From the IMG/VR virus record IMGVR_UViG_3300032516_000005: a DNA stretch of 64,000 bases. One strand, written 5' to 3'. Shown here piece after piece: positions 4,491 to 63,746 of this stretch; positions within the stretch are counted from its first letter, which is position 1; every line of letters begins with the position of its first letter. The notes under the pieces are model-generated. The model saw only the letters and a program-made list of their open reading frames with translations, had not been told where the DNA came from and did not search any database. The position numbers and the translations under genes were made by a program. The stretch is from a virus.

Positions 4491-4535
4491 GACGTTAGCT
4501 CCCTAGGTAGTCACCGACGCAGCTCTGCACCAGGG

Positions 4536-5986: not shown

Positions 5987-5987
5987 G

Positions 5988-8092: not shown

Positions 8093-8117
8093 GAGTGTTA
8101 TCGCAAGAGCGATCGGC

Positions 8118-18054: not shown

Positions 18055-18070
18055 GATCGCGTACGCGATC
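18055..18070. promoter_or_regulatory. GATC-box palindrome
   Basis: GATCGCGTACGCGATC, intergenic. Confidence 0.65.
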
Positions 18071-18100: not shown

Positions 18101-18550
18101 TCATCGGTCTCTAAGCGGGCAGTCTCGGCGGTACAGGTGCTTGATCGTACATACGATCATAGGTACCGTAGTTGCTTCCTCGTCTACCTTTACGGACCGG
18201 CTAGGGGGCAACATGACACTGAAAGTCCAGCGCGAATCTGCGACTCCGAACCTGCTCAAGTACAGCGTCACCCTGACGGTGGTGAGTTTACCCTGAGCCG
18301 CGAAGACCTGATCCGCGACAGCACGCGTGGACCGCTTCGCACGTACGTCGAGCGAGCTGTTCAACTGAAGGATGCGGATGCAGCCTGTCGCTACCTGTTG
18401 TGCAGCGCCTCGATGCGAACGCTGGTGACGCCGCGTTCGTTCGCGCGTGTCGCTGTCGACGCGAGCGCTGAAGGTGCTGCATCGAGCATCGCGTTCAAGA
18501 TCATGGCCGAACCCAACGCAACGGCTATCGTCGCACTCGAATTCCGCCAC
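18101..18550 (-). CDS. Hypothetical basic protein
   Basis: 149-aa ORF downstream of 18566..19117; contains VGFG. Confidence 0.45.
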   Translation of the reverse strand: MAEFECDDSRCVGFGHDLERDARCSTFSARVDSDTRERTRRHQRSHRGAAQQVATGCIRILQLNSSLDVRAKRSTRAVADQVFAAQGKLTTVRVTLYLSRFGVADSRWTFSVMLPPSRSVKVDEEATTVPMIVCTIKHLYRRDCPLRDR

Positions 18551-18565
18551 TCGGTCTCGGCGTAA

Positions 18566-19117: not shown

Positions 19118-19134
19118 GTGGTTAGCCTATCACC

Positions 19135-19150
19135 GATCGTGTGCGCGATC
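19135..19150 (-). promoter_or_regulatory. GATC-box with downstream -10
   Basis: GATCGCGCACACGATC-GGTGA-TAGGCT-N6-GTG on the minus strand. Confidence 0.75.
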
Positions 19151-19190
19151 ACCGCTTTCGGTCCATGCAGCACGTAGTAGGGTCGCGGCC

Positions 19191-19769
19191 ATGACGCTCG
19201 AAGCCCTGATCGCCGCCATCATCGCGATGTCATTCAACCTGTCGCCAGAACAGGCACGCATTCACGTCGAGGCCGCTACAGCTGCAGCCGCTGAATACGC
19301 GCTTCCCGTCGAGCTTTTGCTTGGTGTCGCCTACGTCGAGTCACGCTTCGATGAGCGTGCCTTGAGTCGCGTGGAGTGCGCGTCCAAGGATCCGACTAGC
19401 TGCGCACGCAAGACAGGCGTCTGGCCATACGCTACGAAACCGCCGAAGGCGCGTCCCAGTTGGTATTGCGGGCCGTTGCAAAGCGGAGGCTACGTGCCGT
19501 GGGCTGAATGCCAGAAGATGCGCACCGACGTCGCATACGGCTACCGTGCGGGTGCACAAGAGCTGGTGACGTGGATGAACGACAAGCACTGCCAAAGTCT
19601 TGGCGTCGATGACCGACTGCGCTGTGCGCTCGCAGGGCACAGCGCTGGCAACGCAGGCGTTGCAGCGTACCGGACAGTCAAGTACGCCGACTGGGCGCTC
19701 CTTGGGCGTGACCGCGTCGTCAAGTTCGCGAACTACGCTGCACGTAAGGCTCAGCAGCCTGGCAGCTAG
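19191..19769 (+). CDS. SLT-like lytic transglycosylase with N-terminal signal or anchor
   Basis: LLLGVAYVESRFD catalytic Glu motif, GPLQ, ALAGHSAG. Confidence 0.7.
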   Translation: MTLEALIAAIIAMSFNLSPEQARIHVEAATAAAAEYALPVELLLGVAYVESRFDERALSRVECASKDPTSCARKTGVWPYATKPPKARPSWYCGPLQSGGYVPWAECQKMRTDVAYGYRAGAQELVTWMNDKHCQSLGVDDRLRCALAGHSAGNAGVAAYRTVKYADWALLGRDRVVKFANYAARKAQQPGS

Positions 19770-20236: not shown

Positions 20237-20252
20237 GATCGCGCACACGATC
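20237..20252 (-). promoter_or_regulatory. GATC-box with downstream -10
   Basis: GATCGTGTGCGCGATC-GGGTG-TAGTTT. Confidence 0.75.
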
Positions 20253-20750: not shown

Positions 20751-20766
20751 GATCGCGGACGCGATC
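20751..20766 (-). promoter_or_regulatory. GATC-box with downstream -10
   Basis: GATCGCGTCCGCGATC-ATGG-TACGTT. Confidence 0.75.
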
Positions 20767-25949: not shown

Positions 25950-26014
25950 TCTTCTTTCTGGAGGTTGATCCCTCAAGTCGGCGACGCCTTCTCGACGGGT
26001 GTTTCGCTCAAGAA

Positions 26015-26060
26015 GATCCCACGAGCGATCGCCGACGTCAAGATGATCGCTGCCGCGATC
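26015..26060. promoter_or_regulatory. Tandem GATC-boxes, starts 30 bp apart
   Basis: GATCCCACGAGCGATC (26015-26030) and GATCGCTGCCGCGATC (26045-26060) in a divergent intergenic region. Confidence 0.7.
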
Positions 26061-26121: not shown

Positions 26122-26835
26122 ATGCCAGCCCTCAAACCACGCGAAAATCCGCGCAAGGTGTTCAAGCACCGGCACCGCGAACGTGGTCCCAGTCGGCTGT
26201 TCACGTTCGATGATCTTGCAGCCGCTGCGACCGAGGCACCCGCAACCACGCGTTCAAAGCTCCGTACGACTACCGATGCTCGCACGGCCGCGCTGTACAT
26301 CACCGAGGCATTGACGCGCCGATCACAGAAGCTCACTGATGACGAAGCTGTCCAAGTCCTCAAGGGGCAGGCGACATTGAAGGAGTGGCGAGGGCGCTGG
26401 CCGCGGTTCGATTTGTACCGCTGCGGTTACCCGAGCTGTCCAGCCACGATGATGGAACCGGGGCTCTGCGCACTTCACGGTGGAACGCTTCAACCGTTCG
26501 CCAAGATCGTCGATGACCACTTCATGATCCTGACTGGCCGTGAGTACACGCCGCTCTGCCGCGTGATCTTCGGTGTCATCGGCTCGGGCGCAGTTGAACA
26601 CGTAGATAAAAACCCGTGGAACAACCATCCGGACAACCTGATCGTGCCTGTAGATGGTCACGTACGTTCATCGCGTCGTAACCGTTGGTCGTACGGATAC
26701 CGCGAGCTGGCGACGCTGTTCGATCTGTCTGAAGACAGTACCCGGCAAGTGGTGTCGCGAGGAATCGTCAACCCAGCATCGCTCGACAGTGTGACGAGCT
26801 TCTGGTGGCTGCGGCAGGACCGTCGACGACTGTGA
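26122..26835 (+). CDS. HNH-like domain protein with flanking HTH-like segments
   Basis: VEHVDKNPWNNHPDNL; CxxxxC...C..H; YGYRELATLFDLSEDSTRQ. Confidence 0.6.
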   Translation: MPALKPRENPRKVFKHRHRERGPSRLFTFDDLAAAATEAPATTRSKLRTTTDARTAALYITEALTRRSQKLTDDEAVQVLKGQATLKEWRGRWPRFDLYRCGYPSCPATMMEPGLCALHGGTLQPFAKIVDDHFMILTGREYTPLCRVIFGVIGSGAVEHVDKNPWNNHPDNLIVPVDGHVRSSRRNRWSYGYRELATLFDLSEDSTRQVVSRGIVNPASLDSVTSFWWLRQDRRRL

Positions 26836-26839
26836 GCCG

Positions 26840-27112
26840 TTAGAGCGGTGTCCGCAGTCGACCGTGACACGCCGGACACACACGAATGGCGCGACCGCCA
26901 CGCTGGATGTACGTGCCTTTTTGTGTCGGCAGCAGGCAGCCACAACCCATGCACAAGATCTTCTCGACTCCGTGACGGTGCGCCATCTCCCAGGAGATGT
27001 GCCACATGCCCGTCAATGACGCTGCGACGAGAGCGTCACGCAGGGTCTTGAGCGTGGTGCCGTCGGCAAAGACGTGGTTATCGTCACGGATGATCACGCG
27101 CGGCATGCTCAT
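26840..27112 (-). CDS. Small Zn-finger protein
   Basis: CMGC...CPAC. Confidence 0.55.
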   Translation of the reverse strand: MSMPRVIIRDDNHVFADGTTLKTLRDALVAASLTGMWHISWEMAHRHGVEKILCMGCGCLLPTQKGTYIQRGGRAIRVCPACHGRLRTPL

Positions 27113-28011
27113 GGCGTCCTCAGGAGGTTTGCATCTGACGTGATCAGAACTGCGGGCCGCAACCCGCGACGCGCGGCAGTGGCGCCGACGACGTGGCGTT
27201 CGCTGATTGGCGTGACACGCGCCCAGGCGTATAGCTCACGAACGCGCTCGTGATCGCTGTTCGAGGCAATGATGATGGCACCGCGGTTGTGTGCTTCGGT
27301 GAGTGCCGCCGCGAGCGCGAAGTGGTCGTCCTCGGTGAACCCGCCGGCTGTGTAGCCGCTGAACGTGTCGTAGTACGGCGAATCGGCGTAGACAACGTCG
27401 CCGGTCTGCGCCGTTGCGATCGTCTCGCGAAAATCAGCCACACGGAGGTCTGCGCGCTTGAGCGCTTGTGAGACGGCCGCGAGTGCGTCCTCATCCGGCA
27501 AGCTCGCGCGCGAGCGGTCACCGCCGTGCGGAACGTTGAACTTGCCGTCACCGTTCTCACGATAGAGGCCGTTGAAGCCAAACTTGTTAAGGTAGAGGAA
27601 CCGCGCAGCCGCAAACACGACGCTGGGAGGCTCCGATGCACGGACCTTCAGGTAGCTTTCCTTGTCAGTGCCGCGATCGACGAGTGTTTGCAGTGCCCAC
27701 GCGACGGCCGCAGGCGTCTTCCGGATCGCCTGGTACATGTTGATCAGCGGCTTGCAAATGTCGCTGAGCAGCATGTTTGACAGCCCGAGGTCGAGCGCGA
27801 TGGCTGCACCACCCAAGAACGGTTCGATGTACCAACCCCCAGTGACGGCAAGCCGTTCATAGATGATCGGCGCCAGCATCGGAACGAGCCAACGCTTGGA
27901 GCCAACCCACTTGAGCGGCGGCGTACAGTGGGCACGTGGCGGCGCCAGCGGCTCGGTGCCGGGCACGACCACCTGTCGCGGGTCGGGCTTCGATTCTTGA
28001 ACGGTCATCAT
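27109..28011 (-). CDS. dam: Dam-like N6-adenine DNA methyltransferase (D12 class)
   Basis: LKWVGSK, EPFLGGAA, FLYLNKFGFNGLYREN...FNVP, DSPY (DPPY variant), SNS. Confidence 0.88.
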   Translation of the reverse strand: MMTVQESKPDPRQVVVPGTEPLAPPRAHCTPPLKWVGSKRWLVPMLAPIIYERLAVTGGWYIEPFLGGAAIALDLGLSNMLLSDICKPLINMYQAIRKTPAAVAWALQTLVDRGTDKESYLKVRASEPPSVVFAAARFLYLNKFGFNGLYRENGDGKFNVPHGGDRSRASLPDEDALAAVSQALKRADLRVADFRETIATAQTGDVVYADSPYYDTFSGYTAGGFTEDDHFALAAALTEAHNRGAIIIASNSDHERVRELYAWARVTPISERHVVGATAARRGLRPAVLITSDANLLRTP

Positions 28012-28020
28012 GTAACTCCC

Positions 28021-28167
28021 CTAGAGTTTCGCGAACAGGTACAGCGCAAGCACGAGCACCAGCGTCGACAACAGCCAGCGCATTACGCGCGGTGAACGAT
28101 GATTAGGTGCAGCGACGCTGCGTTCGAGCAGGCTATGCCACAGCCGATCACGTGTACCGCGGCTCAT
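28021..28167 (-). CDS. Small membrane protein
   Basis: 48 aa ending WLLSTLVLVLALYLFAKL; fills operon gap. Confidence 0.5.
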   Translation of the reverse strand: MSRGTRDRLWHSLLERSVAAPNHRSPRVMRWLLSTLVLVLALYLFAKL

Positions 28168-28169
28168 GC

Positions 28170-28451
28170 TCACGTCTTGGTGCTTTCATAGTCGGTGCCG
28201 AGACGTAGCTCGTCACGTAGATCGAGGTAGTAGGCGATCGCGGCATTGGCGTCGTCGAATAGCTCTTCGGACGTCATCTGCATGGTGTTGTCGTAGCGCG
28301 CGACGCGGAACCGGCCATCTTCAAGACCGTCGATACAGAGGTCCGCAAACAGCTCGATGCCGAAGCCGGCTGGGTGTGTGAGAACGATAGCGAACGCTGC
28401 CATGAGCTGTTCGGCTTGTGCGCGTTCAGCGATGGCATCTGTAGAAGTCAT
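28170..28451 (-). CDS. Hypothetical protein
   Basis: ATGA overlap with the tmk stop. Confidence 0.55.
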   Translation of the reverse strand: MTSTDAIAERAQAEQLMAAFAIVLTHPAGFGIELFADLCIDGLEDGRFRVARYDNTMQMTSEELFDDANAAIAYYLDLRDELRLGTDYESTKT

Positions 28452-29068
28452 GTCGTAGGTTCGCCTGGAAGGCCCAGGTCTTTCCACATCCAGCGCAGGG
28501 TTACGTCGAGTGGCTTGGTGCCGTCGAGGGTCACGCTAGACGCGAACCGTACCTGTAGCTCACGGTAGGCTGCGCACTGCGCCTCGACCTGTTCGACCTG
28601 ATCCGGTTCGTAGAGCGTGTTGCGTTCACCGCCACGAGCGGTACGCCGCTCCAGTGAGACTCTCGCGGGCACGTCGACCAGGTAGATTCGATCGGGGACG
28701 ATGAAATTCGCAGGGCGCGTGACGGCGCTAACGCGCTCCACGCCGTGGATCTTGCCTTGATAGACGAGTCCCGAAACCATCGTGTGCCGGTCGCAGATGA
28801 CCCAGTCGCCTTCAGAGACGTGCCGCCGGATCTGCGGCTCCATGTCTTTGCCCTCGGCAACGAACAGCCACATCATGGCCTCGGGGCTGATTGTCGTACG
28901 CTTTTCGAAGACATCGCGGATGAGGTTGCCAACGGCGGATTCACGCCCGGGGAAGGCAAGCGCACGGACAGGTTTGTTCAGGTTCTGGAGCGCCTTGACG
29001 AGCATCACGGCGAGCGTGGACTTGCCACTGCCGTCGGGGCCTTCGAGGACGACATACTGGCCTCTCAC
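28448..29068 (-). CDS. tmk: Thymidylate kinase
   Basis: LEGPDGSGKST, FPG, ICDRH..S..VYQG, PD. Confidence 0.9.
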   Translation of the reverse strand: MRGQYVVLEGPDGSGKSTLAVMLVKALQNLNKPVRALAFPGRESAVGNLIRDVFEKRTTISPEAMMWLFVAEGKDMEPQIRRHVSEGDWVICDRHTMVSGLVYQGKIHGVERVSAVTRPANFIVPDRIYLVDVPARVSLERRTARGGERNTLYEPDQVEQVEAQCAAYRELQVRFASSVTLDGTKPLDVTLRWMWKDLGLPGEPTT

Positions 29069-29106
29069 TTCGTGCTCTCGATCTTCAGCATAGTCATGTT
29101 CCTTGG

Positions 29107-31092
29107 TTACGGTCGCGCGGGTCGCGCGTTGAGGAACTTACCGGCATCGGCGAGATCCTGCGAGAACCCTTTGAACGGCAAGCTCGCCAGGAACGCGCGG
29201 CCATAGCGCCGGGCTTTGATCCGCTGATCGAGCAACACGAACACGCCATGGTCGTTGACGCTACGAATGAGCCGCCCAGCGCCTTGTGCGAGTGCGATCG
29301 CTGCACGAGGTACGTAGAAGTCGTCGTAGAACGAGTCCGGGTGCTTGGCCTTCATCATGTCGACGAAGGGGTCATCGAACGAGTCGAACGGCAGCTTGTC
29401 GATGACGAGGCAGGACAGCGATTCGCCCGAGACGTCGAGCCCCATCCAGAAGCTCTTGGTCGCGAGTAGCACGCTGTCGGTCTGCTCGCGGAACATCTGC
29501 GCGAGCAACTTGTTGGGAGCGTCGCCCTGGACCAGCAGCGGGTAGTCGATCTTGTCCCGCAGCTGACCTGCGATGTAGTTGAGCCGCCGCCACGACGTGA
29601 ACAACGCCAGCGTACGGCCGCGACAGTCCCGCACGAGGGTCTCCAGCGCGATCGCTGCAGCACGGTCGAAGTCGTCTTCGAACTCACGCGTCGGGAAGGG
29701 GATCCCAAGTGGGATCACGAACCGCGCCTGCTTGGCGTAGTCGAACGGGCTTGCAACCCTAAGTGTCATGGTCTTGGCTGTCATCACCGGGTCCACGAGA
29801 CCTAGCTCGCCGCGGATGAAGTCGAACGTGCCGCCAGACGTCAGCGTCGCCGACACGCACACGATCGCGGGGTACTGCGTGAACACGAGCTTTTTGAGCT
29901 GATCCCCGACGTGATAGGGCGCGGCACAGAGCTTCACCGTCGCACCTGTGATGCGTGCCGCGTCCATCGGCTTGTCGAGCCAGTATGCGGTCGTGTCGTC
30001 GACCTGGCCGACGAACGCGAGCAGGTCGCGCTTCAGTTCGATGGCCCGCTCGTTGATCTTCGTCCGCGTCATGCACACGGCACAGATCTCGCCGTCGAGA
30101 CAGCCGCCGCAGTCTCCCTTTGCGGCCGTAGCAGTCTCGTCGAGGACTTCGCAAAGGTCATCGACGTCGATGAACCCCGGGTCTTGAATCCGCCCTCCAC
30201 GGGTACCCGCAGCATACGTCGCGATCTTCTCGAACAGCGGCGCGACGGTTGCGCGCAGCTGCTTGGCCAGCTCGGGCTCCCCGAGCTTTTCGCTGACAGC
30301 CGTCGCGAGACGACGAACCGCCCACTCGGTGACTTCCCGTCCGAAGCATCGCCGGCCGATGGCAGCCGCCTCGTGGGCTTCGTCGAGGATGACATACCCG
30401 AACTTCTGCCACATCGGGTCTTTACTGTAGAGGAGCTTCGAGTAGAACAGATCGTAGTTCGCGATCACGACGTGCGCGTAGAGCGCGTCCTGCGCAGCTT
30501 TTTCGGCGTGACAGGTCTCGTAGTTGGGGCAGGCGCCGTGATCGCAGTTCTCACCTGCAACCGAGACGATCCGCCAGGCCTTGTCGGAGATACCGACGGG
30601 TGCGTCGTTGCGATCGCCAGAGCATGGAACAGCTGCAGCCCATGCACTGATCGCCTCACCTTCATTCGCGATGTCCTTCGGCCAGCTAAGCCCGCCGCCG
30701 TCGTAGAGCGCCAGCTCACGCTGGCAGAGGTAGTTCGCGCGGCCCTTGAGCAGCTTGAACCGGAAACCGCCTGGGATCAGCGGCTGCAACGCTTCAGCGA
30801 GCAGGGGCAGGTCCTTCTCGGCGAGCTGATCCTGCAATGCCTTGTTGGCCGTGACGATCAACGCCGGCTTGCCGGTCTTGAGTGCATGCAAGATCGCCGG
30901 GACCGCGTACGCCAGCGACTTGCCGACGCCAGTCGGGCCTTCAGCGAGCAGAATCCCGCCGCGCTCGAACGTGTCGTTCACGTCGTGTGCAAGCTTCACC
31001 TGGCCCTCACGGCGAGCGTAGTTGGGGACGATGCCGGCTAGCGCCCCGGTGAAGTCCTCGAAGATGCGGTCGATCTGATCAATGCTGCTCAT
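29107..31092 (-). CDS. dinG: DinG/YoaA-family Fe-S helicase
   Basis: REGQ, EGPTGVGKS, KGRANYLC, DEAH, SATL, LVIDKLPF, QGAGRLIR. Confidence 0.92.
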   Translation of the reverse strand: MSSIDQIDRIFEDFTGALAGIVPNYARREGQVKLAHDVNDTFERGGILLAEGPTGVGKSLAYAVPAILHALKTGKPALIVTANKALQDQLAEKDLPLLAEALQPLIPGGFRFKLLKGRANYLCQRELALYDGGGLSWPKDIANEGEAISAWAAAVPCSGDRNDAPVGISDKAWRIVSVAGENCDHGACPNYETCHAEKAAQDALYAHVVIANYDLFYSKLLYSKDPMWQKFGYVILDEAHEAAAIGRRCFGREVTEWAVRRLATAVSEKLGEPELAKQLRATVAPLFEKIATYAAGTRGGRIQDPGFIDVDDLCEVLDETATAAKGDCGGCLDGEICAVCMTRTKINERAIELKRDLLAFVGQVDDTTAYWLDKPMDAARITGATVKLCAAPYHVGDQLKKLVFTQYPAIVCVSATLTSGGTFDFIRGELGLVDPVMTAKTMTLRVASPFDYAKQARFVIPLGIPFPTREFEDDFDRAAAIALETLVRDCRGRTLALFTSWRRLNYIAGQLRDKIDYPLLVQGDAPNKLLAQMFREQTDSVLLATKSFWMGLDVSGESLSCLVIDKLPFDSFDDPFVDMMKAKHPDSFYDDFYVPRAAIALAQGAGRLIRSVNDHGVFVLLDQRIKARRYGRAFLASLPFKGFSQDLADAGKFLNARPARP

Positions 31093-31123
31093 GTCATTCC
31101 CCTAGAATTCAAAATCGCTGTGG

Positions 31124-31663
31124 TCATCGTGCTTGCAGAGCAAAAAAGTGTGACGGCTTGAACGTTTCCATTGGACACAACGAACCGCGTCGAACGGCCC
31201 ACGCAGGCACGTCCAACGTCTCGTCCCACCACTTGTCACGGATCACGAACGTGCCCCAACACCATCCCGCCAACACCACGATGGGCAGCTTGTGTAACGA
31301 GACGAGCACGTACGGGTAGTCACCCATGTGCGCGTGTTTTTTTGGGATGATCAACTTGTGCGTGGCCTTACGCACCGACTTGATCTGGATCGATCCGACA
31401 TCGCCCTCCCCACGGCGTAGAGCCCATTCCTCGCGCGTCCACAACCGGCCAGTCCACGGCAGCTTGTAGTGCTTCATGAAGGCAAGCTCGGCGATCGCGC
31501 CCTGAATGTCGATGTCGACGGGTTGGCGGTGCGGATCGATGATGCCGTCGCTGTACGCGCCGTTAGCATCGGAACGACAACGCCCAATTTCTTCTGCGCC
31601 GGCCAGCTCACGAATGGTCAAGGGCACGTCGATGAAGTGCTGAAAGGAATGACGTTGGCGCAT
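31124..31663 (-). CDS. PD-(D/E)xK-like nuclease fold protein
   Basis: GAIAELAF...GDVG.IQIK; similar to 48138..48686. Confidence 0.55.
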   Translation of the reverse strand: MRQRHSFQHFIDVPLTIRELAGAEEIGRCRSDANGAYSDGIIDPHRQPVDIDIQGAIAELAFMKHYKLPWTGRLWTREEWALRRGEGDVGSIQIKSVRKATHKLIIPKKHAHMGDYPYVLVSLHKLPIVVLAGWCWGTFVIRDKWWDETLDVPAWAVRRGSLCPMETFKPSHFFALQAR

Positions 31664-34269
31664 CAGTTGACCTCGGCCCAAGATTTTCCAGCACGCGCGT
31701 CGACGGGAAAATTCACCGTCACGCCTTCGTAGGTCACATCGCGCGTAAAAGACGTGATCACCAACTGCTTGACCAGATCCTGGTCGTCTTCGTCGCACTC
31801 GAACACAACGGCATCGTGGATCTGCAGGATCGGGAACGCGTCCTCGGGCAACCGCGGCATGATGTCCATCAAGCCCAGGTTGATGATGTCCGCGCCTGTG
31901 CTCTGCACGGGGAAGTTGACGACCTCGGACAGCTCGAATTGCTTGAGCGGGAAGCAACGACGACGCCCCAGGATCGCACTGCGGACCTCGCCGGCCGTGT
32001 CGGCCACGCGCATCATGCGCTGGTGCCACGCGGTGACGCCGCCCATCTTGGTCTTCATCATCGCGACCATCTTGCCGATCATGCCGATGGTGACGTTCGG
32101 GTAGTCGCGGACGACGGCCTTCCACAGCGTGTCGACGGCGCCGCCGTAGAACGCGCCGTACTCGGGCCGCTTGATCATGTCGCGTAGGACTTTCCGTTCG
32201 TCAACAGGCTTCTGATCGAAGTCAGGCCAGACGATGCGGGCGAACTCGCTGTGGATGTCGCGCTTGTTCGCGAAGATGTCGAGCAGGAACGGGTCAGCCG
32301 AGAGCAACGCGATGATCCGCGCTTCGAGCTGTGCTGCATCGAAGGCCACGAGCGCGCGCCCGTGCGGTGCGATGACCTGGGTGCGCAGGTTCGGTCGGCC
32401 TTTTTTCTTGTCAGCTTTGGGCCAATTTTGACTTCCCGGCGACTCCGAGCCCCAGCGGCCAGTGATCTTGTGAACGCTCCAGCGCGGATGGCAGCGACTG
32501 TTCTCGTCACAGAACCCGTAGATGACCTTGCCGTTCGCATACTCGCGCGTGAACATGCGCTCGACGAACGTCGACAGCAGCTTGGCGTTCTCACGGTACG
32601 TGAGCAGCGCCCGGACCTCGGGGTGGTGCACGAAGCTTTCTAGGATGTCCTTCTTCGTCGAGATCCGACCGCTCGACGTCTGCAAGCTCAACGGCACACC
32701 GCAGGCCTTCAAGAACGCAACGATATGATCACCGGAGTCGATCATGAACTTGAACGGCTTCTTGCCACTGTCCATTTCGGCGATGCGTTTATCGATACGT
32801 TCGTCTTGATCGAGCGGGTCCTGCTTGCGGCAGCGCCGCGACTGTTCGAACGCGAGACGCTCCTTGAAGATTGGATTGATGGCGGGCTCGAAGACCTTGT
32901 TGATCAGCTCACTGCGTGATCGGTCAACGTTGGTACGGAAGCCAACCCGGAGGTGTTCGTTGACGTCCTTGTCGATGGGTACGCCTCGGACGTGCATGAT
33001 CGCGGCGGCCTTTGCCATGGCGCGGTCGACTTCATAAGTCTTCTCGGAATTCGTCCGCTTGATGACGATCGTCAGCGGCGCCTCGACGCGCGCCGTCGCG
33101 AGCGTATCGCGGGCGTTGTACTTGAGCAGGTCGATCAGGTCACCCTGGCCGTGCCGGTGCTCGGCCTTCCACGGTGAGATCGCGTAGAACTGTGTCGTCA
33201 CGCGCTGCAAGTCGTGAGGCAAGCCGGGGAACGCGCTGTGATGCAGGAGCAGGGTATCTTCCTGCGGGCCCTGGACCGTGAAGCCGTGCCGGTTCAGGAC
33301 CGGGACGTCGTAGAGACCATTGTGGAACGTCTTCGTGATCGTAGGATCAGCGAGGATCGCGCCGATGAGACGGCGTGCGCGCGGCGTCAGGATAGCCCAC
33401 GCGACGCTGATCGCGCGGTCAACAGTTGCGAGGCCAATTGCGCTGAGTTTGGCGTGGGCGGCTTGCAGCGCGGAGTGCTGCTTGGGGTCATCGACGTACG
33501 TCTCGGTGTCACACGCGAACGCGCGCTTGATGCGAGCTTCGCGGACGAAATCCTCGACGAGCTTTTCGGCCCGAACGGAATCTTCCGTCTCGAACTCGAT
33601 GTCGTCGGTGAATTTGATGTCGGCGCCGCGTGCGAGGAGGTTGATCTTCTTCAGGTCGTAGAGCAACGACCAAAAGCCGAGGTCGCTCGTGTGTGCACCA
33701 CCGCCCTTGCCACTGCCGCCACGCAAAATCGCTGCGGGGTGTGTCGTCGGAATGACGGACCGGAGCGTCCCGGACCCGTCGACGTCGACTTCGTAGTGCG
33801 CGCCGGCCATCTGCGTGATCGAGAATTTCTCGCCGCAGAAACCTTGTGCCGCGATCGAGCCCAACGCTGCAACAGGTCGGTTAGGGAACTGCGCCAGCTC
33901 CTGTTTGAGGCGTGGCGCGCAGCTCTGGCGTGCTTGCCGCTTCTCTAGCTCGGTTGAACCGCTCGGTGGCTGGCACAAGGTCGCGTTGGTCATCCAGAGC
34001 GACTCACGCTTGACGCCGATGCGTGCGAGCGCCTCGTTGACCATGCGGCCCGTCTGTCCGACAAACGGACGCTGCTGAACGGTCTCGTTCTGACCAGGAC
34101 CTTCGCCGACGATAATCCAGATCGCGCGCTCAGAGCCTTCGCCAGTCACCGGCTGCTTCGGCTTGCCCATGTATGAGAACGGGCAGTCGAAACAGTTGGC
34201 GCCAGCCGTGGACCCGCGGATGATCAGCGGCGGCTCGTCGTCGATCGCAGCTTCAGCGACGACTGTCAT
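31663..34269 (-). CDS. polA: Family A DNA polymerase with N-terminal uracil-DNA-glycosylase-like domain and 3'-5' exonuclease
   Basis: VGEGPG..E..RPFVG, HPAAILR; DTET, HNGLYD, YNARD; DAAQLEAR, KRPEYGAFYG, QIHD. Confidence 0.93.
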   Translation of the reverse strand: MTVVAEAAIDDEPPLIIRGSTAGANCFDCPFSYMGKPKQPVTGEGSERAIWIIVGEGPGQNETVQQRPFVGQTGRMVNEALARIGVKRESLWMTNATLCQPPSGSTELEKRQARQSCAPRLKQELAQFPNRPVAALGSIAAQGFCGEKFSITQMAGAHYEVDVDGSGTLRSVIPTTHPAAILRGGSGKGGGAHTSDLGFWSLLYDLKKINLLARGADIKFTDDIEFETEDSVRAEKLVEDFVREARIKRAFACDTETYVDDPKQHSALQAAHAKLSAIGLATVDRAISVAWAILTPRARRLIGAILADPTITKTFHNGLYDVPVLNRHGFTVQGPQEDTLLLHHSAFPGLPHDLQRVTTQFYAISPWKAEHRHGQGDLIDLLKYNARDTLATARVEAPLTIVIKRTNSEKTYEVDRAMAKAAAIMHVRGVPIDKDVNEHLRVGFRTNVDRSRSELINKVFEPAINPIFKERLAFEQSRRCRKQDPLDQDERIDKRIAEMDSGKKPFKFMIDSGDHIVAFLKACGVPLSLQTSSGRISTKKDILESFVHHPEVRALLTYRENAKLLSTFVERMFTREYANGKVIYGFCDENSRCHPRWSVHKITGRWGSESPGSQNWPKADKKKGRPNLRTQVIAPHGRALVAFDAAQLEARIIALLSADPFLLDIFANKRDIHSEFARIVWPDFDQKPVDERKVLRDMIKRPEYGAFYGGAVDTLWKAVVRDYPNVTIGMIGKMVAMMKTKMGGVTAWHQRMMRVADTAGEVRSAILGRRRCFPLKQFELSEVVNFPVQSTGADIINLGLMDIMPRLPEDAFPILQIHDAVVFECDEDDQDLVKQLVITSFTRDVTYEGVTVNFPVDARAGKSWAEVN

Positions 34270-34359
34270 GCATCTCCAGCTCTCGGGTCATGTGGCTCGC
34301 CTCCCTAAAGACGAGTGATACAGCTAGCTCTCGGTGAACGACAAATCAGCTCAATCAGC

Positions 34360-36771
34360 TCAGCACTTCGAGTGTCCACAGTTCGTACACAGCCCGCAGC
34401 GCTGCTGGTAGATGAACGTCGCCTTGCCGCATGCCGGGCACAGATCGCTCAGCGACTTCGACTTGGGCCGAACGTGACCATTCGAAGCGGCGTTGACGGT
34501 GCTAGCACTGACGATAGGTGCCGCAGGCGCGTGCATGGGCATCGGTGCATGCGTAGCTGGAGGCGCGTCGACGACATAGTTGAAGCTGTCGTTGATACCC
34601 AAGTGCGATAGCAACATCTTGGCGATCGCGTCGGGCGCGGACACGACACGCTCCATGCCGACGGCCCAGACGTCGCCACCGCCGATGTTGCTGAGCTGCC
34701 GCGCGACTTCTTCGAGGCGCGCCTGGGGCGAGAACGGCGACGGCAGCGCGAGCGTGTAGCTGACCACACGACCGAACGCTTCAGCCCACGCCATGACCTC
34801 GGAGCCTGACTTGCCGACGCGTACGAACAGCTCGAACGGGTCGCCGTCGCTGGGGTGATGGTTGATCGTCATGTGGACGCTGCCGTACGGTGTCGAACGG
34901 CTCAGCGTGACGCCTGCGCGCCGGCCGTCGGCGGGTACACGGCGCTTGGTAGTCGCGGCAACGGGTGCAGTTGCGACGGGGGCGACCACGGTGGGCACGT
35001 CGTTGGGCTTGACGGCAACGCCGGCCGTGAGTACTTGCCCCGAACGGCAGCCGTCGCGGTAGACGGTGATGCCCTTGCACCCCTTCGTCCACGCCAACAT
35101 GTACGCGCGCTCGATGTCGGCCTCGGTCGCGTCATTCCTGACGTTAATCGTCTTCGAAATACCGTCTTCAGTGTGGACCTGAAAGATCGACTGCATCCCA
35201 ACGTGATCTTCCATGCTCAACTCGTTGGCAACGGCAAACACCGCGCGCCAATGATCGGGGACGCTAGGCGCGTCAGCCAGCGATCCTGTCTGGCGCACGG
35301 TCTCGGCGAGCTGATCAGACCAGAAGCCTTCGCGCTTGGCGATCTTCTCGACGAGCGGGTTAACTTCGAGCATCGTCATACCTGCTTGATCACGTGTCAT
35401 CGACAGACCGTACAACGGCTCGATGCCGCTACTGCAGCCAGCGATGATGCTGATCGTGCCGGTTGGTGCGATGACCGTTACCGTTGAGTGACGACGCGGC
35501 TTGTGGCCTTGCTTGGCCCACTTCGAGACTGGCCAGTGATGAAACGGTCCACGCTCCTCGGCGAGCTTCTCGCTGGCATCGATGGCCCATGTGTTGACGA
35601 GCTTCATCACGTGGCTGCCCAGCTCACGCGCTTCCGGTGAGCCGTACGCGATGCCCAACTGAATCAGCAAATCCGCCCAACCCATGACGCCGAGGCCGAT
35701 CTTGCGGCACTTCGACGTGACGTCGTGGATCTCTGGGATCGGGTACTTGTTGACCGTCAACATGTTGTCGAGGAAGCGGACACTGTGCTGGACGGTTTTC
35801 TGTAGCCGGTCAAAGTCAATCGAGCCGTGGCGCATCACGACGTTGCCGTACTTGTGTGCGTTGCCGGCAGCTTCTTTCTCAACGAAGAACTCGGCGAGAT
35901 TGACCGACCCGAGACAGCAGGCGTCATACGGACGCAGAGCCACTTCTGCGCAAGGGTTCGGTGCTTCGATCGGCCCGAGCGCTTCGGACAGTGCATCGGC
36001 GGCGTTCACGCGATCGATGAACCACAAGCCGGGGTCGCCGATCTTGTGCGCGCAGCGGACGATCTCAGCCCAGACCGTCGGGGCGTGAAGCTGCGCGACG
36101 ACGTTGCCCGAGACCGGGTGGATCAAGTCGAAGTCTTTGCCAGCTTCGAGCGCGAGCATGAAGGCATCGGTGATCGCCACCGACACGTTGAAGTTCTGCA
36201 TCTTGTTCGCGTCGCCCTGCTTGAGGGCGATGAACTTCATGATGTTCGGGTGATCGATGCGCAGGATGCCCATGTTCGCGCCGCGCCGAACACCGCCCTG
36301 TTTGATCCGCTCGGTCGCGAAGTCGAAAACTTCCATGAACGAGATCGGACCGGACGCGACACCCGACGTCGTCGAGACGAAGTCACCCTCGGGCCGTAGC
36401 CGGCTGAAGCTGAAGCCTGTACCGCCGCCAGTCTTCTGCACGAGCGCCATGTTGCGGATCGCGCTGAAGATCCCGTCCATCGAATCGGGCACCGGCAACA
36501 CGAAGCACGCGCTGAGCTGGCCGGTACCGTCAGGTCGACCTGCGTTGACGAGACACGGCGTGTTCGGCTCGAACTCACGTGCGGCCATCATCCGGTAGAA
36601 GATCGCCGCCCACTTCTCGCGCTCGCCAGGTACTTCAGCTGTTGCGAGAAAATCAGCAACGCGCTTGAACAGACCTTTGGGTGTCTCGATGACTTCTTGG
36701 TGAGCGTTGCGAATGAGGTACCGCTTGGCGAGTACACTCTGGGAAATCTCAGTCAGCACTGGCTCGATCAT
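34360..36771 (-). CDS. nrdJ: Class II (B12-dependent) ribonucleotide reductase with TSCPD-like domain and Zn ribbon
   Basis: PNTPCLVNAG, LSACFV, GGGTG, RRGANM, NPCAE, IAPTGTIS, KGITVYRDG, CPAC..CTNCGHSKC; no beta subunit nearby. Confidence 0.9.
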   Translation of the reverse strand: MIEPVLTEISQSVLAKRYLIRNAHQEVIETPKGLFKRVADFLATAEVPGEREKWAAIFYRMMAAREFEPNTPCLVNAGRPDGTGQLSACFVLPVPDSMDGIFSAIRNMALVQKTGGGTGFSFSRLRPEGDFVSTTSGVASGPISFMEVFDFATERIKQGGVRRGANMGILRIDHPNIMKFIALKQGDANKMQNFNVSVAITDAFMLALEAGKDFDLIHPVSGNVVAQLHAPTVWAEIVRCAHKIGDPGLWFIDRVNAADALSEALGPIEAPNPCAEVALRPYDACCLGSVNLAEFFVEKEAAGNAHKYGNVVMRHGSIDFDRLQKTVQHSVRFLDNMLTVNKYPIPEIHDVTSKCRKIGLGVMGWADLLIQLGIAYGSPEARELGSHVMKLVNTWAIDASEKLAEERGPFHHWPVSKWAKQGHKPRRHSTVTVIAPTGTISIIAGCSSGIEPLYGLSMTRDQAGMTMLEVNPLVEKIAKREGFWSDQLAETVRQTGSLADAPSVPDHWRAVFAVANELSMEDHVGMQSIFQVHTEDGISKTINVRNDATEADIERAYMLAWTKGCKGITVYRDGCRSGQVLTAGVAVKPNDVPTVVAPVATAPVAATTKRRVPADGRRAGVTLSRSTPYGSVHMTINHHPSDGDPFELFVRVGKSGSEVMAWAEAFGRVVSYTLALPSPFSPQARLEEVARQLSNIGGGDVWAVGMERVVSAPDAIAKMLLSHLGINDSFNYVVDAPPATHAPMPMHAPAAPIVSASTVNAASNGHVRPKSKSLSDLCPACGKATFIYQQRCGLCTNCGHSKC

Positions 36772-36847
36772 TGGTGTTGTCCGCTCCGTACACAGGGTTT
36801 GAACGTCGACGATCGATATGGGTCGCGGTAGCAGGTAGCTGACCCGC

Positions 36848-36910
36848 CCGCGTGCACGTTGCACGCGGTGTTGAGCGAACAACCGCGACTAGCGCTTACG
36901 CGCTAGGTCG
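36848..36910 (-). other. Two intergenic hairpins upstream of nrdJ
   Basis: CCGCGTGCA-CGT-TGCACGCGG and CTAGCGC-TTAC-GCGCTAG (GUAA tetraloop on the minus strand). Confidence 0.5.
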
Positions 36911-37477
36911 TTAGCTGCGCGCCGGGGGACGGCCATTCGCGGGCGGCGCGGGGCGGCGCGGGCCACCCTGCGGAGCCGTGACCGGCGCCGTGGCCACTGG
37001 TGCAGCCAGCTTCGGTGCCGTCGCGACAGCGCCGATACCCTCGTACGCACGCTCACCGTTCCACTTCGTGAACTCCTTCGTGGTCGGCAGACCCGACTTC
37101 GCGTCGATGTCATCGAACGTGTCGATGATGACGTCGGCGGTGAAGTACAGGCCCACGAGCGACTCGCGCGCGAAGCCGCCCTTCTCGTCGAGCACAGCGC
37201 CCGACGCTTCGATGAGCGCCTTCATGCGACGACGAGCGAACTCGTCATCGGAGATGACGTACGAACCCGTGAGGGTGCGTCCCTTCATCTCACTGCCGTC
37301 GGTCGCGACCTTCGCGGTGACACGCAGCGTCCGATTGCCCTTCTTGGACTGATCGAAGACTGCCTTGTCGATCTCGAAGTCGTACGTTCCCGGCTCGATG
37401 CGCTGAGAACGGCCATCGTGCGCCGTGATGGAGGGATCGCCCAGATTCATGCTGATGTAGTCGACAAAATCGGCCAT
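36911..37477 (-). CDS. DUF669-like single-stranded DNA-binding protein
   Basis: IEPGTYDFEI...SKKGN; Pro/Ala tail; follows AAA_24 gene. Confidence 0.7.
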   Translation of the reverse strand: MADFVDYISMNLGDPSITAHDGRSQRIEPGTYDFEIDKAVFDQSKKGNRTLRVTAKVATDGSEMKGRTLTGSYVISDDEFARRRMKALIEASGAVLDEKGGFARESLVGLYFTADVIIDTFDDIDAKSGLPTTKEFTKWNGERAYEGIGAVATAPKLAAPVATAPVTAPQGGPRRPAPPANGRPPARS

Positions 37478-37528
37478 GGTAGCTCTCTCTTTCGTGGTTG
37501 CAGTTTCAGTGACTCGAACAGACTCTCG

Positions 37529-38404
37529 TTACCTGGGCGTGCTCCGTCCAGGTTGAGACGGGGTTGACGACGCAGACGGACTTGAAGGTCTGCCTTTGCC
37601 GTTCGCTGCGGGGGGCGCAGCCGCTGCCGCAGCAGCTTCCGCGACGGTGGGCAAGATGCCCAACGCCTCGGCCATCGTGCGGTACGTGCAATCGGGGACG
37701 AACAGCTCCTGGCCGTCCTCGTTGACCTGCACGTACCCGAGCGGATCAGACAAGCGACCTTCATCGCGTCCACCCGCTTGGTAGTTCTGGTACTTCTTCG
37801 TCCGGATTTCCCACTGGAGCGCAGTGTTCGGCTGCGCCTGGAAGCTGCGGTGATAGAAGACGTAGTCGCAGCCTGCCTGGAACTTCGCCGCGTTCTGACC
37901 CGAGAGCATCGGACCGCCGACAGGCGTGTCTTCGCCTGGGGGTTTCTCCAGCGCGAGCCAGACGACGTTGCTGCCGAGCAGATGAATGACCTCGCGGAGG
38001 TTCTTCAGATGCTGACCGAGCTTCTGGTAGAGCTGGCGCGCGTCAGCACGATGTCCTGCGGTTGCATCGAGCGTGTTGAAGAACAGGTCCGCGTAGAACG
38101 TGATCGAGTCGACGACGACAGTCTGAACTTCGCCGCGCTTGACGAGCGGCTCTGCGTCGTGCACAGCCTGCATCATGTCGGCGGCTTTGTCGATCGACCA
38201 TACGATCGGTGCGCGTCCCACCTCGAACAAGGCGTTGCGGTCCATGTTCCCGAGCGTTGTCCAGCCTGACTCGGTGGCGTCGGATAGGAATAGCGGCCTG
38301 GGCCACGTGCCTGCGAAGCGCGTCTTGCCCGCGCGGGACATGCCGTAAGACAGCGCGGTGACACGCTGGATTTTGCCGGGCTTGCTGACGTCGATAACCC
38401 TCAT
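37529..38404 (-). CDS. AAA_24 / Sak4-like recombination ATPase
   Basis: YGMSRAGKT, TVVVDSIT. Confidence 0.8.
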   Translation of the reverse strand: MRVIDVSKPGKIQRVTALSYGMSRAGKTRFAGTWPRPLFLSDATESGWTTLGNMDRNALFEVGRAPIVWSIDKAADMMQAVHDAEPLVKRGEVQTVVVDSITFYADLFFNTLDATAGHRADARQLYQKLGQHLKNLREVIHLLGSNVVWLALEKPPGEDTPVGGPMLSGQNAAKFQAGCDYVFYHRSFQAQPNTALQWEIRTKKYQNYQAGGRDEGRLSDPLGYVQVNEDGQELFVPDCTYRTMAEALGILPTVAEAAAAAAAPPAANGKGRPSSPSASSTPSQPGRSTPR

Positions 38405-38414
38405 GCGTTGCTCC

Positions 38415-39545
38415 TTAGCTCTCTTCGGTTGTCGTTACGTTGTCATCTGACGCCGTAGCAGCGCGAGACGTTTGCCCGATCGCAGCACCATCCGCAAGGC
38501 CCTCTTGCGATTCAGTCGCGGCCGCGATCGTCGGTTTGGTTTGCGGTGCCCACTCACGCTTGCGAATAGGCACGAGTTTCTGATTCTCGGCGCAGTGATC
38601 AAAAAAACTGCACATGCCGAACTTGGTCACGCAGTTCGCGCGAGCTTTCGGCCACACGCCGGTCGCGGCGTACATCTGCTGCAGCGCGGACCACATCTTG
38701 AGGTCCTCCATGTGCTGCTGGACGTGCCATCTCTGCGCGGGAACGATCGTCCGATGGAACTGGACGGTCTTCTGCTTGCCGACGATGTTGACGATGGTGC
38801 CGCGGAGCTTGCCGTACTTCTTGTCGAGCTTGGCACGCTTCCAGATCATGATCTGGCCGAGAATTTCACCGTCGTTCCGCCAGCCGTCGAGGACGTCTGC
38901 GGTGAACCGCGCAGCCGACTTGTGCTCGACGATGTACACGCCGGGCACGACGCCTGGAGCGGCCTCGTGAACCTCGGCGATCAAGTCGAAACGGCACGTG
39001 TTGCCGTCGGGATCCTGAGCCCACTGTTCCATCGCGATCGGCGTGAGGTAGTCATTCTCGTACTTGTTCGCGTAGGCGTCGTACAGTCGCCAGGCTTCGA
39101 GGATCGCAACAGCATCACCGCCGCCGTCCATCATCGCATCACGGGCGACCTGCGGCGTGAGCGTCAAGTTCTCGTTGAGCATCCACAGATAGTGGAGCGC
39201 GAGGTACGTGTGGAACGCGGACCCAGTTTCGAGCGCGCGTGCTGGCGCTCCACGATGACCATCGAGATAGCTGAGCTTGAACAGGTACGGGCAGCGCTGG
39301 AACGTCGCATGGCTGCTCCAGCCGCGTCCTGAGGCGCCACCCATGCGCTCCATGCCGTGAGCGTCGAAGGTCGTCAACAAGATGTCATCGAGCCGCTTGA
39401 CGGTCGAATCCATGAACATGCTGATGCGGTTGGGATCGAGCGGCGGTGGGACGATCATGTTCGGACCCTTGTTGGGGTCGAGGTCATCAGCGTCGGTCAG
39501 CTCACGCGTGCCGTTGCCGTTGGTGCCGTTGGGTGCTTTGGTCAT
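38415..39545 (-). CDS. Cas4/RecB-like PD-(D/E)xK exonuclease with Fe-S cysteines
   Basis: SS..TFQRCP, GSAFH, RFDLI, VEHKS, NC...CSFFDHC. Confidence 0.8.
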   Translation of the reverse strand: MTKAPNGTNGNGTRELTDADDLDPNKGPNMIVPPPLDPNRISMFMDSTVKRLDDILLTTFDAHGMERMGGASGRGWSSHATFQRCPYLFKLSYLDGHRGAPARALETGSAFHTYLALHYLWMLNENLTLTPQVARDAMMDGGGDAVAILEAWRLYDAYANKYENDYLTPIAMEQWAQDPDGNTCRFDLIAEVHEAAPGVVPGVYIVEHKSAARFTADVLDGWRNDGEILGQIMIWKRAKLDKKYGKLRGTIVNIVGKQKTVQFHRTIVPAQRWHVQQHMEDLKMWSALQQMYAATGVWPKARANCVTKFGMCSFFDHCAENQKLVPIRKREWAPQTKPTIAAATESQEGLADGAAIGQTSRAATASDDNVTTTEES

Positions 39546-41326
39546 TCCGACTCCATGTCGAGGGTCCACATTGTTCCGTGATAGTCGTTGTCGCCTTCAT
39601 CCTCGTCGGGATGATCGGTAAGTACGGCGTTCGCGAGTGCTGCGAAGTCATCGGCAGTTCCCAGCCCGCCACCAACACCCGTGAAGCCGCTGGCGATGAC
39701 CTCGATCGCGCTCTCAGCCGCTGGGATCCCGAGACGCAATGCGAAGTCACACTTGGTCTGCAACGCTTCGAGGATCTTCCGTTCAATCTCGTGATCGATG
39801 ATCACGTACGTTGCGGCGATCGGTTGCTTGCCGTTGAACGGCCGCATCTCGGCCTGCGCAACGATCGACGGGGTGTAGTCCAGCTCCGCGAAGATCTCCT
39901 GCCGCGCAGCGCTCAGATCGATCCCAACCTGACCGACGGACAGTGTGATGCAAAGCGGCGCTGCAGGATGCGCACGCCACCGATCGAAGATCTCACCGCG
40001 AATGTCAGGGTTGGTGCTGCCCGTGACGACGAAGCCGGGAAAGCCCTGCTTCGCAAGGGCCTCTTCGATCTTGATCGCGATGTCGCGGTGCCAGGTCCAG
40101 ACGATGACACGTTCACCGCCGTCGAGGACACGCTTGGCGACGTCGATAGCGCCGTCTAGCTTGAGCTGCGCGAGCAGGCGCCGGAAGCGCGCCATCGCGC
40201 CGATGGCGGTGCTGCGTACCGCGTGGTCACGGACGCGTTCGGCTTCCTTCTCGACCTTGAACGACTGGCGTTCGGTGATCTGAACGACCTCGACCGTGCG
40301 CTCGATGACGGGCACTTCACCGAGCACGCTCTGCCAGGTGCGGCGCAGCATGATCTCTTGCATGCGCACGCGGAATTCTTCTTCGTTCGAGGCGCCGTCA
40401 GCAACGAACCCATGTGGACCCATGCGGCCGTTCGCGTAGCGGCTCGCGTACTCGAAGTACTTGCCCCACGCGCCGGGGCTGAGGCACGACAACGTCGTGA
40501 ACAAGCCAGCGGGTTTGTTCCACAGCGGTGTGCCGGTCGCGCCGATGACGCGTTCGGCTTGCGCTGCGAGGAACATGGCGGCCTTGCTGCGCCGTGAGCT
40601 TTTGTTCGAGAGGAGATGGATCTCGTCGAAGACCAGCGTGCCGACGCGGCGGTTGCCAAAGTTCTTCCAGCCGGCAAGGATGTCGTAGTTCATGAACACG
40701 AGCTGCGCGTTCTTGAGTGCGCTCTCGTCGAAGAACTCGCCTTCGAGCAGGTCGTAGTTGCGCTCCCGCTTGCGCTTGGGCGCCTTCTTCGGGTCGACGT
40801 ACGCGACGTACTTGCCTTGCAGCACGGTCGGCCGAACGTCCGGCCACCGTCGACGAAACCACCCGAGCCAGACCTCGCGGGTCGCGAGCGGCGCGACGAC
40901 AATCAGTGGACCATCGTTCGGATCGTGCGACGAGACAATTTGGCTCGTTTTCCCTAACCGCATTTGATCCGCAAGCAAAATGCCACGGCGTGCGCGGATG
41001 AACTCACGGCCGGTATGCTGATAGTCCCGGAGTTTCCAACCGTTGGGCTCCGTCGTCGTGTCGAAGGCGTCGCGATCGCTGTTGCGATCACTTTCCAGTC
41101 CCATCCGCGATCCTTGCTGGGACAAAAAAAGCTCGACCTCGGGATGGAGCTTCGCAAGCAACGGCAGATGGGAGCGGTGCACCAGCGGTCCGAACCGCGG
41201 GTCGAGTTGCACCGACGGGGCAGGCGAAACCTCCGGCGTCCATGCCGGAGGGATCGCGTACCAATCGCGTCGTTTTGGGTGTGGCGTTAGGGCTAGCTCA
41301 GCCCGTGGCGCCGTCATCGCTCTCAT
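39542..41326 (-). CDS. SNF2-family helicase
   Basis: LRDYQ, LADQMRLGKT, DEIH, TGTP, QAEMR. Confidence 0.88.
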   Translation of the reverse strand: MRAMTAPRAELALTPHPKRRDWYAIPPAWTPEVSPAPSVQLDPRFGPLVHRSHLPLLAKLHPEVELFLSQQGSRMGLESDRNSDRDAFDTTTEPNGWKLRDYQHTGREFIRARRGILLADQMRLGKTSQIVSSHDPNDGPLIVVAPLATREVWLGWFRRRWPDVRPTVLQGKYVAYVDPKKAPKRKRERNYDLLEGEFFDESALKNAQLVFMNYDILAGWKNFGNRRVGTLVFDEIHLLSNKSSRRSKAAMFLAAQAERVIGATGTPLWNKPAGLFTTLSCLSPGAWGKYFEYASRYANGRMGPHGFVADGASNEEEFRVRMQEIMLRRTWQSVLGEVPVIERTVEVVQITERQSFKVEKEAERVRDHAVRSTAIGAMARFRRLLAQLKLDGAIDVAKRVLDGGERVIVWTWHRDIAIKIEEALAKQGFPGFVVTGSTNPDIRGEIFDRWRAHPAAPLCITLSVGQVGIDLSAARQEIFAELDYTPSIVAQAEMRPFNGKQPIAATYVIIDHEIERKILEALQTKCDFALRLGIPAAESAIEVIASGFTGVGGGLGTADDFAALANAVLTDHPDEDEGDNDYHGTMWTLDMESE

Positions 41327-60558: not shown

Positions 60559-60574
60559 GATCGCGTGCGCGATC
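60559..60574 (-). promoter_or_regulatory. GATC-box with downstream -10
   Basis: GATCGCGCACGCGATC-ATG-TATTGT-N7-ATG. Confidence 0.8.
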
Positions 60575-61888: not shown

Positions 61889-61904
61889 GATCGCGGACGC
61901 GATC
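61889..61904 (-). promoter_or_regulatory. GATC-box with downstream -10
   Basis: GATCGCGTCCGCGATC-GATGA-TACGCT-N7-ATG. Confidence 0.8.
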
Positions 61905-63700: not shown

Positions 63701-63746
63701 GATCGCTGACACGATCAAGGTAACCGACTCGATCGCGCACGCGATC
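63701..63746 (-). promoter_or_regulatory. Tandem GATC-boxes, starts 30 bp apart
   Basis: GATCGCTGACACGATC (63701-63716) and GATCGCGCACGCGATC (63731-63746); on the minus strand followed by AATGG-TTGAAT-N6-ATG. Confidence 0.75.

Follow-up and report, generated by a model that had tools for sequence, protein, structure and literature searches.

Does a methyltransferase encoded by a virus time the transcription of the virus's own genes? The question is raised by a 64,000-nucleotide stretch of DNA (IMG/VR record IMGVR_UViG_3300032516_000005), here called the window, in which a Dam-like gene lies among replication genes and a short palindrome with a GATC at each end recurs at predicted promoters. 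The original prediction was that the methylation state of such paired GATC sites, hemimethylated after replication, could couple late gene expression to DNA replication. In our analysis both Dam and the palindromic box proved to be real, and a methylation timer for late genes is a possibility rather than a demonstrated fact.

The virus and its relatives

The window is part of a large bacterial virus from sediment, with a GC content of 62%, and encodes a fusion of PolA with uracil-DNA glycosylase (PolA-UDG), a class II ribonucleotide reductase (RNR), helicases, thymidylate kinase and an SLT transglycosylase. No isolated phage was found close to it, polymerase identity being 26% at best. Relatives were obtained from IMG/VR, among them G001 (196 kb) and G002 (221 kb, complete), and a search with a conserved capsid-like protein added 12 further, more distant viruses. 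Three genomes (G006, G007 and G008) that had a single match to the box pattern each and no protein in common with the window were not used; the match in G008 is an apparent chance hit. The window virus and its relatives constitute an undescribed group of large viruses.

A host search found neither an exact CRISPR-repeat match nor a provirus of this clade. Relatives of the capsid protein sit in Gemmatimonadota, Polyangiales and Actinomycetes bins, and a Gemmatimonadota chromosome record (L203; CP070815.1, about 3.71 Mb) contains a capsid gene with 71% identity to the G001 gene; this locus may be a provirus, and it gives a lead to possible hosts of the wider group. Two proteins of the window, a GP88-like protein (21358-23832, minus strand) and a 918-aa replication protein (41830-44586, plus strand), each contain an intein with a LAGLIDADG domain; these inteins seem to be missing from close relatives. 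CRISPR-like arrays were seen in G003, where about 18 repeats adjoin a gene whose 631-aa product includes a Cas12f1-like TNB domain (L035, 91591-94993), and in G015 (L219), where about 19 repeats begin at about 25875.

A Dam-family enzyme in the replication cluster

The methyltransferase ORF (Table 1) is intact and matches Pfam MethyltransfD12 (E = 1e-35). By sequence, the closest solved structures are DpnM (2dpm, E = 4e-37) and EcoDam, and a Foldseek search with the predicted model returned the same two enzymes (E = 3e-18 and 7e-18, respectively; TM-score 0.72-0.73 by query). An independent sediment run covered the ORF end to end with zero differences, while a single RNA run gave short partial matches only. 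In EcoDam, GATC is read by K9, L122, R124 and P134, with Y119 and Y138 intercalating (PMC4417163). As originally predicted, equivalents of all four reading residues are present, and so are those of N120, N126 and N132; these positions are nearly invariant across the 54 closest proteins. Relative to EcoDam, R116 is replaced by K, Y119 by F (still aromatic, and F in DpnM too) and Y138 by D, the last of which makes stringency for the first base uncertain. Judged from its residues, the phage enzyme is likely GATC-specific.

Class alpha enzymes have the motif order I - TRD - IV, with a motif IV consensus of (D/N/S)PP(Y/F/W) (PMC7544214). The phage Dam has this order, and its motif IV is, as had been noted, DSPY rather than DPPY, off the consensus. 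The serine is shared by 39 of the 54 closest proteins, DSPY recurs in unrelated Dam-like proteins, and DCPY is also seen among distant ones; our literature search found no paper on DSPY enzymes. By this distribution, DSPY appears to be a fixed natural variant rather than a mark of anything unusual. The dN/dS ratio of the gene is 0.08-0.09 for closely related pairs and 0.13-0.22 for distant ones, which points to purifying selection that maintains it as a protein, and the enzyme is probably active.

Phage methyltransferases frequently lie within replication modules (PMC5537653). Here, Dam is the second-last gene of a 14-kb co-directional cluster that also encodes an SNF2 helicase, a nuclease, an AAA_24 protein, RNR, PolA-UDG, a DinG-like helicase and thymidylate kinase, and it holds the identical slot in all close relatives. 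The replication operon of the original prediction thus stands as a co-directional cluster, which we infer to be a single operon. The gap directly upstream of Dam is taken up by a 48-codon ORF whose product has a hydrophobic C-terminus (28021-28167, minus strand). No restriction-enzyme-like gene was seen beside Dam.

Table 1. Coordinates of the genes, predicted promoters and boxes discussed in the text
Feature	Position	Strand	Remarks
Box with one GATA half-site	8099..8114		adjoins TTGACA of the early ATPase operon
Box	18055..18070		in non-coding gap
Box variant	18143..18158		in the same non-coding gap as 18055..18070
Box	19135..19150		between divergent membrane-protein and SLT transglycosylase genes; 5 nt before minus-strand TAnnnT
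Box	20237..20252		5 nt before minus-strand TAnnnT
Box	20751..20766		4 nt before minus-strand extended -10
Twin-box promoter	26013..26060	-	predicted from consensus: TTGACG 26036-26041, 17-nt spacer, extended -10 GATCTT 26013-26018
Box B	26015-26030		twin-box promoter; overlaps spacer and predicted -10
Box A	26045-26060		part of twin-box promoter 26013..26060
Degenerate HNH protein with HTH-like C-terminus	26122..26835	+	divergent from twin box
Replication gene cluster, co-directional	26840..41326	-	SNF2 helicase to Dam and small zinc-finger gene
C4 zinc-finger gene, 90 aa	26840..27112	-	overlaps Dam stop
Dam/DpnM-type (class alpha, D12) N6-adenine DNA methyltransferase, 300 aa	27109..28011	-	motif IV DSPY; from Pfam, structure matches and alignment
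Intragenic box	41074..41089		in the SNF2 gene, first of the replication cluster, at about 250 bp
Box	60559..60574		upstream of 60159-60542 (minus strand)
Box	61889..61904		5 nt before extended -10, leaderless start
Second twin box	63701..63746		63701-63716 and 63731-63746; between divergent genes

A conserved palindrome that contains two GATC sites

The box is a 16-bp palindrome, GATCGC-N4-GCGATC. In the window, GATC-N8-GATC occurs 25 times against 7.0 +/- 2.5 expected from Markov controls, and GATCG-N6-CGATC 15 times against 1.1-1.5; non-coding DNA holds 13 of the GATC pairs, compared with 1.4 at other spacings. No other spaced palindrome ranks higher than the box in the window, G001, G002 or G004 (44, 36 and 20 strict copies in the three relatives, respectively), and its sequence is retained identically in viruses whose Dam proteins are just 48-61% identical. 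The claim that a GATC stands at both ends of every promoter box survives only in part: the box itself is confirmed, but the statement is partly circular since the box is defined that way, and one half-site of the conserved copy at the early ATPase promoter reads GATA, a variant shared with two relatives (three viruses in all). That copy heads a three-gene operon common to the window and G015 (3669-8009, minus strand), which encodes an AAA ATPase, a probable vWA/metallopeptidase-type protein and a protein without assigned function.

The two GATC sites of a box lie 12 bp apart (T-N10-A), a 13-bp spacing being at background. GATC is not avoided in the viral DNA (roughly 11 per kb), and boxes hold 4-6% of all GATC sites in box-bearing genomes. 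Within the half-site, the first G is changed at eight intergenic sites against one expected, whereas changes of A, T and C are at background. Because these three positions tolerate no substitution, a binding protein probably makes its contacts around the methylated adenine; such a protein would have evolved on usually methylated DNA and may well sense the modification. Two perfect GATCCC-N4-GGGATC palindromes, either box variants or hairpins, were also seen in the interval that separates the second SNF2 gene from a divergent one (12070-12160).

Boxes occupy several kinds of position

Boxes are found at 12 of the 34 predicted unit heads in the window. Their most frequent placement is 4-5 nt ahead of TAnnnT, which in many cases is an extended -10 followed by a leaderless start, and around 108 strict boxes we counted 36 TAnnnT hits at this distance that lack a -35. 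Sorted by position, the box-gene pairings comprise 34 with the box 3-6 nt before the -10, 13 with the box downstream of the -10 and 11 around TTGAC; a further 21 sites are intragenic. The downstream copies occur at orthologous structural-gene promoters, and others flank TTGAC elements on either side. Conservation extends to individual sites: the box at 20751..20766 is kept in every box-bearing relative that covers the site, and the one at 41074 in four, though the amino acids encoded in its middle vary. The segment that holds the latter box is deleted in both box-less lineages described below.

The twin-box promoter heads the run of genes that encode a basic protein and GP88, and its layout was found again at about 14 loci. 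It carries four GATC sites in two pairs, and its predicted -10 itself contains a GATC; these promoter elements rest on alignment, a sigma-70 consensus scan having missed the promoter. Boxes overlap predicted promoters, and in each the GATC pair would sit within the site of a putative regulator.

The original prediction connected the boxes with late gene expression. Boxes are not confined to late promoters, however: copies also lie by the promoter of the early ATPase operon, past the -10 and in the first replication gene. Such a spread would suit a repressor, or a regulator with both activities, more than an activator of late genes alone. Consequently, we consider it improbable that the box is a methylation-independent activator site that replaces the -35 at late promoters, as a successor to the TG(T/G)CA element of distant relatives (see below). 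The commonest placement, next to TAnnnT and apart from any -35, is what such a site would predict, and box-rich genomes show the TG(T/G)CA-N11 class at near-background levels; set against this are the conserved copies downstream of the -10 and inside genes, and the fact that G003 keeps the same promoters with neither a box nor a replacement motif. With a protein of dual function, the activator and operator readings would become one.

Dam outlives the boxes

Two lineages nested among box-bearing viruses, G003 and L078/G010, have lost the boxes in one or two events (bootstrap 64-88). G003, whose polymerase is 70% identical, has one strict box in 95 kb, structural genes included, and retains a box at one of 17 orthologues of boxed G001 genes. 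No replacement motif appears in this genome, in which the extended -10 leaderless promoters are kept; a CCCGATC-N7 dyad that might have been an altered box was ruled out as the CRISPR-like repeat array. No strict box was found in L078/G010 across the orthologues of boxed genes, and the -10 of the L078 twin promoter has lost its GATC. Dam stays intact in both lineages, and neither shows extra acceleration of Dam, whose branches are not long when set against the DinG-like helicase. The values were 0.29 vs 0.41 in G003 and 0.59 vs 0.38 in L078/G010, and the latter ratio resembles that of box-bearing G001 and G002.

More distant relatives show the same pattern. All five complete distant genomes carry Dam with matching GATC-reading residues and have 0-1 strict boxes each. 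Six distant Dam-bearing relatives are without the box regulon, and four of them (G011, G012, G019 and G022) use a GATC-free promoter element, TG(T/G)CA-N11-TAnnnT, which also occurs in the Dam-less G014 (7-22 copies in each of the five). No C5 or N6_N4 methylase accounts for the motif in G014. The same element was observed before leaderless genes in G013, G020 and L204. A distant box-bearing relative, L079, has both promoter classes and encodes a sigma-70-type protein (18496-19287).

Protection from restriction is an established role of phage orphan methylases. Because Dam is kept after box loss and few GATC sites lie in boxes, its job would appear to be genome-wide, most simply anti-restriction. 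The two components of the proposed Dam-box switch stand, and the lineages that lost boxes with Dam intact speak against a link between them.

Exact GATC pairs are the most deeply conserved part of the box

G015, a complete and Dam-bearing genome of 81.5 kb, is a distant sister virus, which midpoint-rooted trees of structural proteins and of Dam place with the box clade (support 100 and 79, respectively). It contains 40 GATC-N8-GATC pairs against 9.1 expected, in coding and non-coding DNA, with weak inner-base preferences; hits to an N13 TGGCA pattern in this genome turned out to be array repeats. In both G015 and the box clade the exact GATC pair alone is enriched, and any one-base change abolishes the enrichment. 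What survived on both sides of this split is thus the Dam target, twice. By this comparison, nothing else in the box is conserved as deeply as the exact double GATC, and a methylation-sensitive box is plausible.

An excess of GATC-N8-GATC is positive in all nine Dam-bearing genomes outside the strict-box set, although it is mild in the six other distant ones when pooled (159 vs 122; rank 6 of 158 tetramers). Two Dam-less genomes, which apparently lost the gene separately, have no pair excess (z = -0.05 and -1.99); this comparison, drawn up with the data already in view, comprises two genomes, of which one is incomplete. G020, whose contig breaks off within the polymerase gene, was not used as a Dam-less control. 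Among loci covering the Dam slot, no box-bearing virus without Dam was found. Such co-occurrence is expected, however, because the box has a single origin on a nearly universal Dam background, and the link between Dam and GATC pairs drawn from G015 and the Dam-less genomes is suggestive only.

The original prediction, in its most coherent version, is a replication timer: virion DNA would arrive fully methylated, and a repressor would hold the methylated boxes until passage of the fork leaves them hemimethylated or unmethylated and releases it, tying late transcription to replication. A variant would have a SeqA-like protein read the hemimethylated pairs, with an additional protective job of Dam explaining its survival after box loss. 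Taken jointly, we regard the two versions as unlikely. The exact pairs conserved across the G015 split, their excess in Dam-bearing genomes only, and the resemblance of the twin promoter, with its four GATC sites and GATC-containing predicted -10, to P22 gtr and IS10 pIN all speak for them. Against them stand the single origin of the box, the loss of boxes with Dam intact, the GATC-less -10 of L078 and the first-G changes tolerated at eight intergenic sites; in addition, hemimethylation should be short-lived in a virus that makes its own Dam.

Candidates for the box-binding protein

None of the five candidate binders examined tracks the box cleanly. The HNH/HTH gene next to the twin box is kept at 71% identity in both box-less lineages, an RHH-like gene is kept in box-less G003, and an HTH_17 gene (41615-41821) in box-less G010. 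The zinc-finger gene at the end of the replication cluster is absent in box-less lineages, but it is missing from that slot in box-bearing L079 and L096 as well, and its product has no fold match. HTH_3 proteins are not shared, G001 having no conserved HTH_3 repressor. No sigma factor was detected in G001, G002 or five distant genomes, and no regulator common to G015 and the box clade was seen. The best remaining candidate is a protein in which a Cys/His-rich N-terminus is fused to a LuxR-type HTH. Its gene, found in G001 (99352-99756; L240) and G002 (about 148325-148723) at 70% identity, has a box directly upstream in G001 and was not found in G003, nor in G015. Possibly, the binder is a host protein.

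That no conserved transcription factor tracks the box is what one would expect if Dam itself were the binder, a DSPY enzyme, catalytically weak or dead, that represses by sitting on GATC pairs, and a methylation-free repressor role has been suggested for EcoDam (PMC4417163). Nevertheless, this idea is very improbable: DPPY is found in the box-bearing L076, L077, L079 and L080 and DSPY in the box-less G003, and the conserved inner GC bases of the box suggest another protein.

A proposed protective Dam and a separate putative operator regulon

We favor, at about even chances, a model in which a protective Dam and an operator regulon exist side by side and methylation state is not the late-gene timing signal. 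Dam would be an inherited, probably active orphan GATC methyltransferase that is expressed with the replication genes and methylates all GATC sites of new viral DNA during replication, most likely for protection from GATC-cutting restriction enzymes or to match host methylation. The 16-bp palindrome would be the operator of a dimeric protein, viral or host, that occupies about -33 to -17 of extended -10 promoters, a -10, positions just past starts and the first replication gene. By binding there, it would keep lytic promoters readable by the host polymerase switched off until it is titrated through replication or inactivated. The operator would normally be methylated, yet methylation would not be the timer of late genes.

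A methylation-gated switch in some form is a lesser but serious possibility. Somewhat doubtful, too, is the broad proposal that the virus's own Dam gates a genome-wide regulon, a dimer reading the methylation of GATC-N8-GATC at about 40 operators, with replication, or the first expression of Dam, thereby switching the lytic programme. One form of gating besides the replication timer would be a commitment ratchet: in a latent state Dam would be silent and the boxes unmethylated and bound by repressor, and Dam, once expressed with the replication cluster, would methylate them, block rebinding and lock in lysis. A conserved intragenic box does lie at the start of the cluster that ends in Dam, and OxyR is blocked by methylation in known cases (PMC2909390). 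A latent state would moreover be possible given the two tyrosine recombinases encoded by G001 and the capsid gene of a relative in a 4.7-Mb bacterial chromosome record. We nonetheless judge the ratchet to have little chance of being correct, as no lysogen of this clade was found, incoming methylated DNA would be unrepressible before replication, and tyrosine recombinases are also retained in box-less G003.

Comparison with known systems

Dam-like genes are present in hundreds of phages, and the purpose of most is unsettled. Our search retrieved 535 phage records with Dam homologues. Orphan phage Dams (T4Dam, P2-like and Salmonella phage Dam, of EcoDam and DpnM types) share with the present enzyme PF02086, motif order, GATC-reading residues and fold; the differences are DSPY, the Y119F and Y138D equivalents, and an identity to isolated-phage enzymes of about 39% at most. 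The enzyme is a further member of the Dam family and, taken alone, routine.

To our knowledge, the Dam switches described so far are confined to one locus each and work through the Dam of the host. In open-access text, no report was found of a double-GATC operator regulon that spans the genome of a virus with its own Dam. The Dam/OxyR switches of P22 gtr, agn43 and phage Mu mom (PMC2909390) resemble the present system in having GATC pairs inside the predicted regulator site, and P22 gtr shares with the twin-box promoter a layout of an upstream pair and a promoter-overlapping pair. Its pairs are 13 bp apart, however, as against 12 in the box, which therefore does not fit the LysR T-N11-A pattern; each switch is also one locus, whereas here 36-44 sites per genome are combined with a virus-encoded methylase.

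The IS10 pIN promoter has a GATC within its -10 hexamer, as does the predicted -10 of the twin promoter. This promoter is listed among others in PMC10073500. SeqA dimers require GATC pairs on one helical face (PMC2691817), and tandem hemimethylated sites bound by SeqA likewise present pairs about one helical turn apart; inner bases are not conserved in SeqA sites, in contrast to the box clade, and no SeqA-like gene was seen. The stoperators of Cluster A mycobacteriophages, 20-45 dispersed sites that decay in some relatives (PMC6550527), are similar in number and dispersal, at promoters and inside transcription units, and in this decay. They are, however, asymmetric, oriented, bound by a known phage repressor and without a link to methylation, whereas the box is palindromic and its binder putative.

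The group offers natural controls: relatives from which the boxes have gone, others from which Dam has gone, and others in which bare GATC pairs are all that is kept. If binding is methylation-dependent, the boxes would form a genome-wide, virus-encoded methylation switch and give a phage orphan methylase a testable regulatory role; if it is methylation-independent, they would still form a well-defined operator regulon in this group of large viruses. By analogy, the nearest precedents appear to be the Dam/OxyR switches for regulation and the mycobacteriophage stoperators for the dispersed sites.
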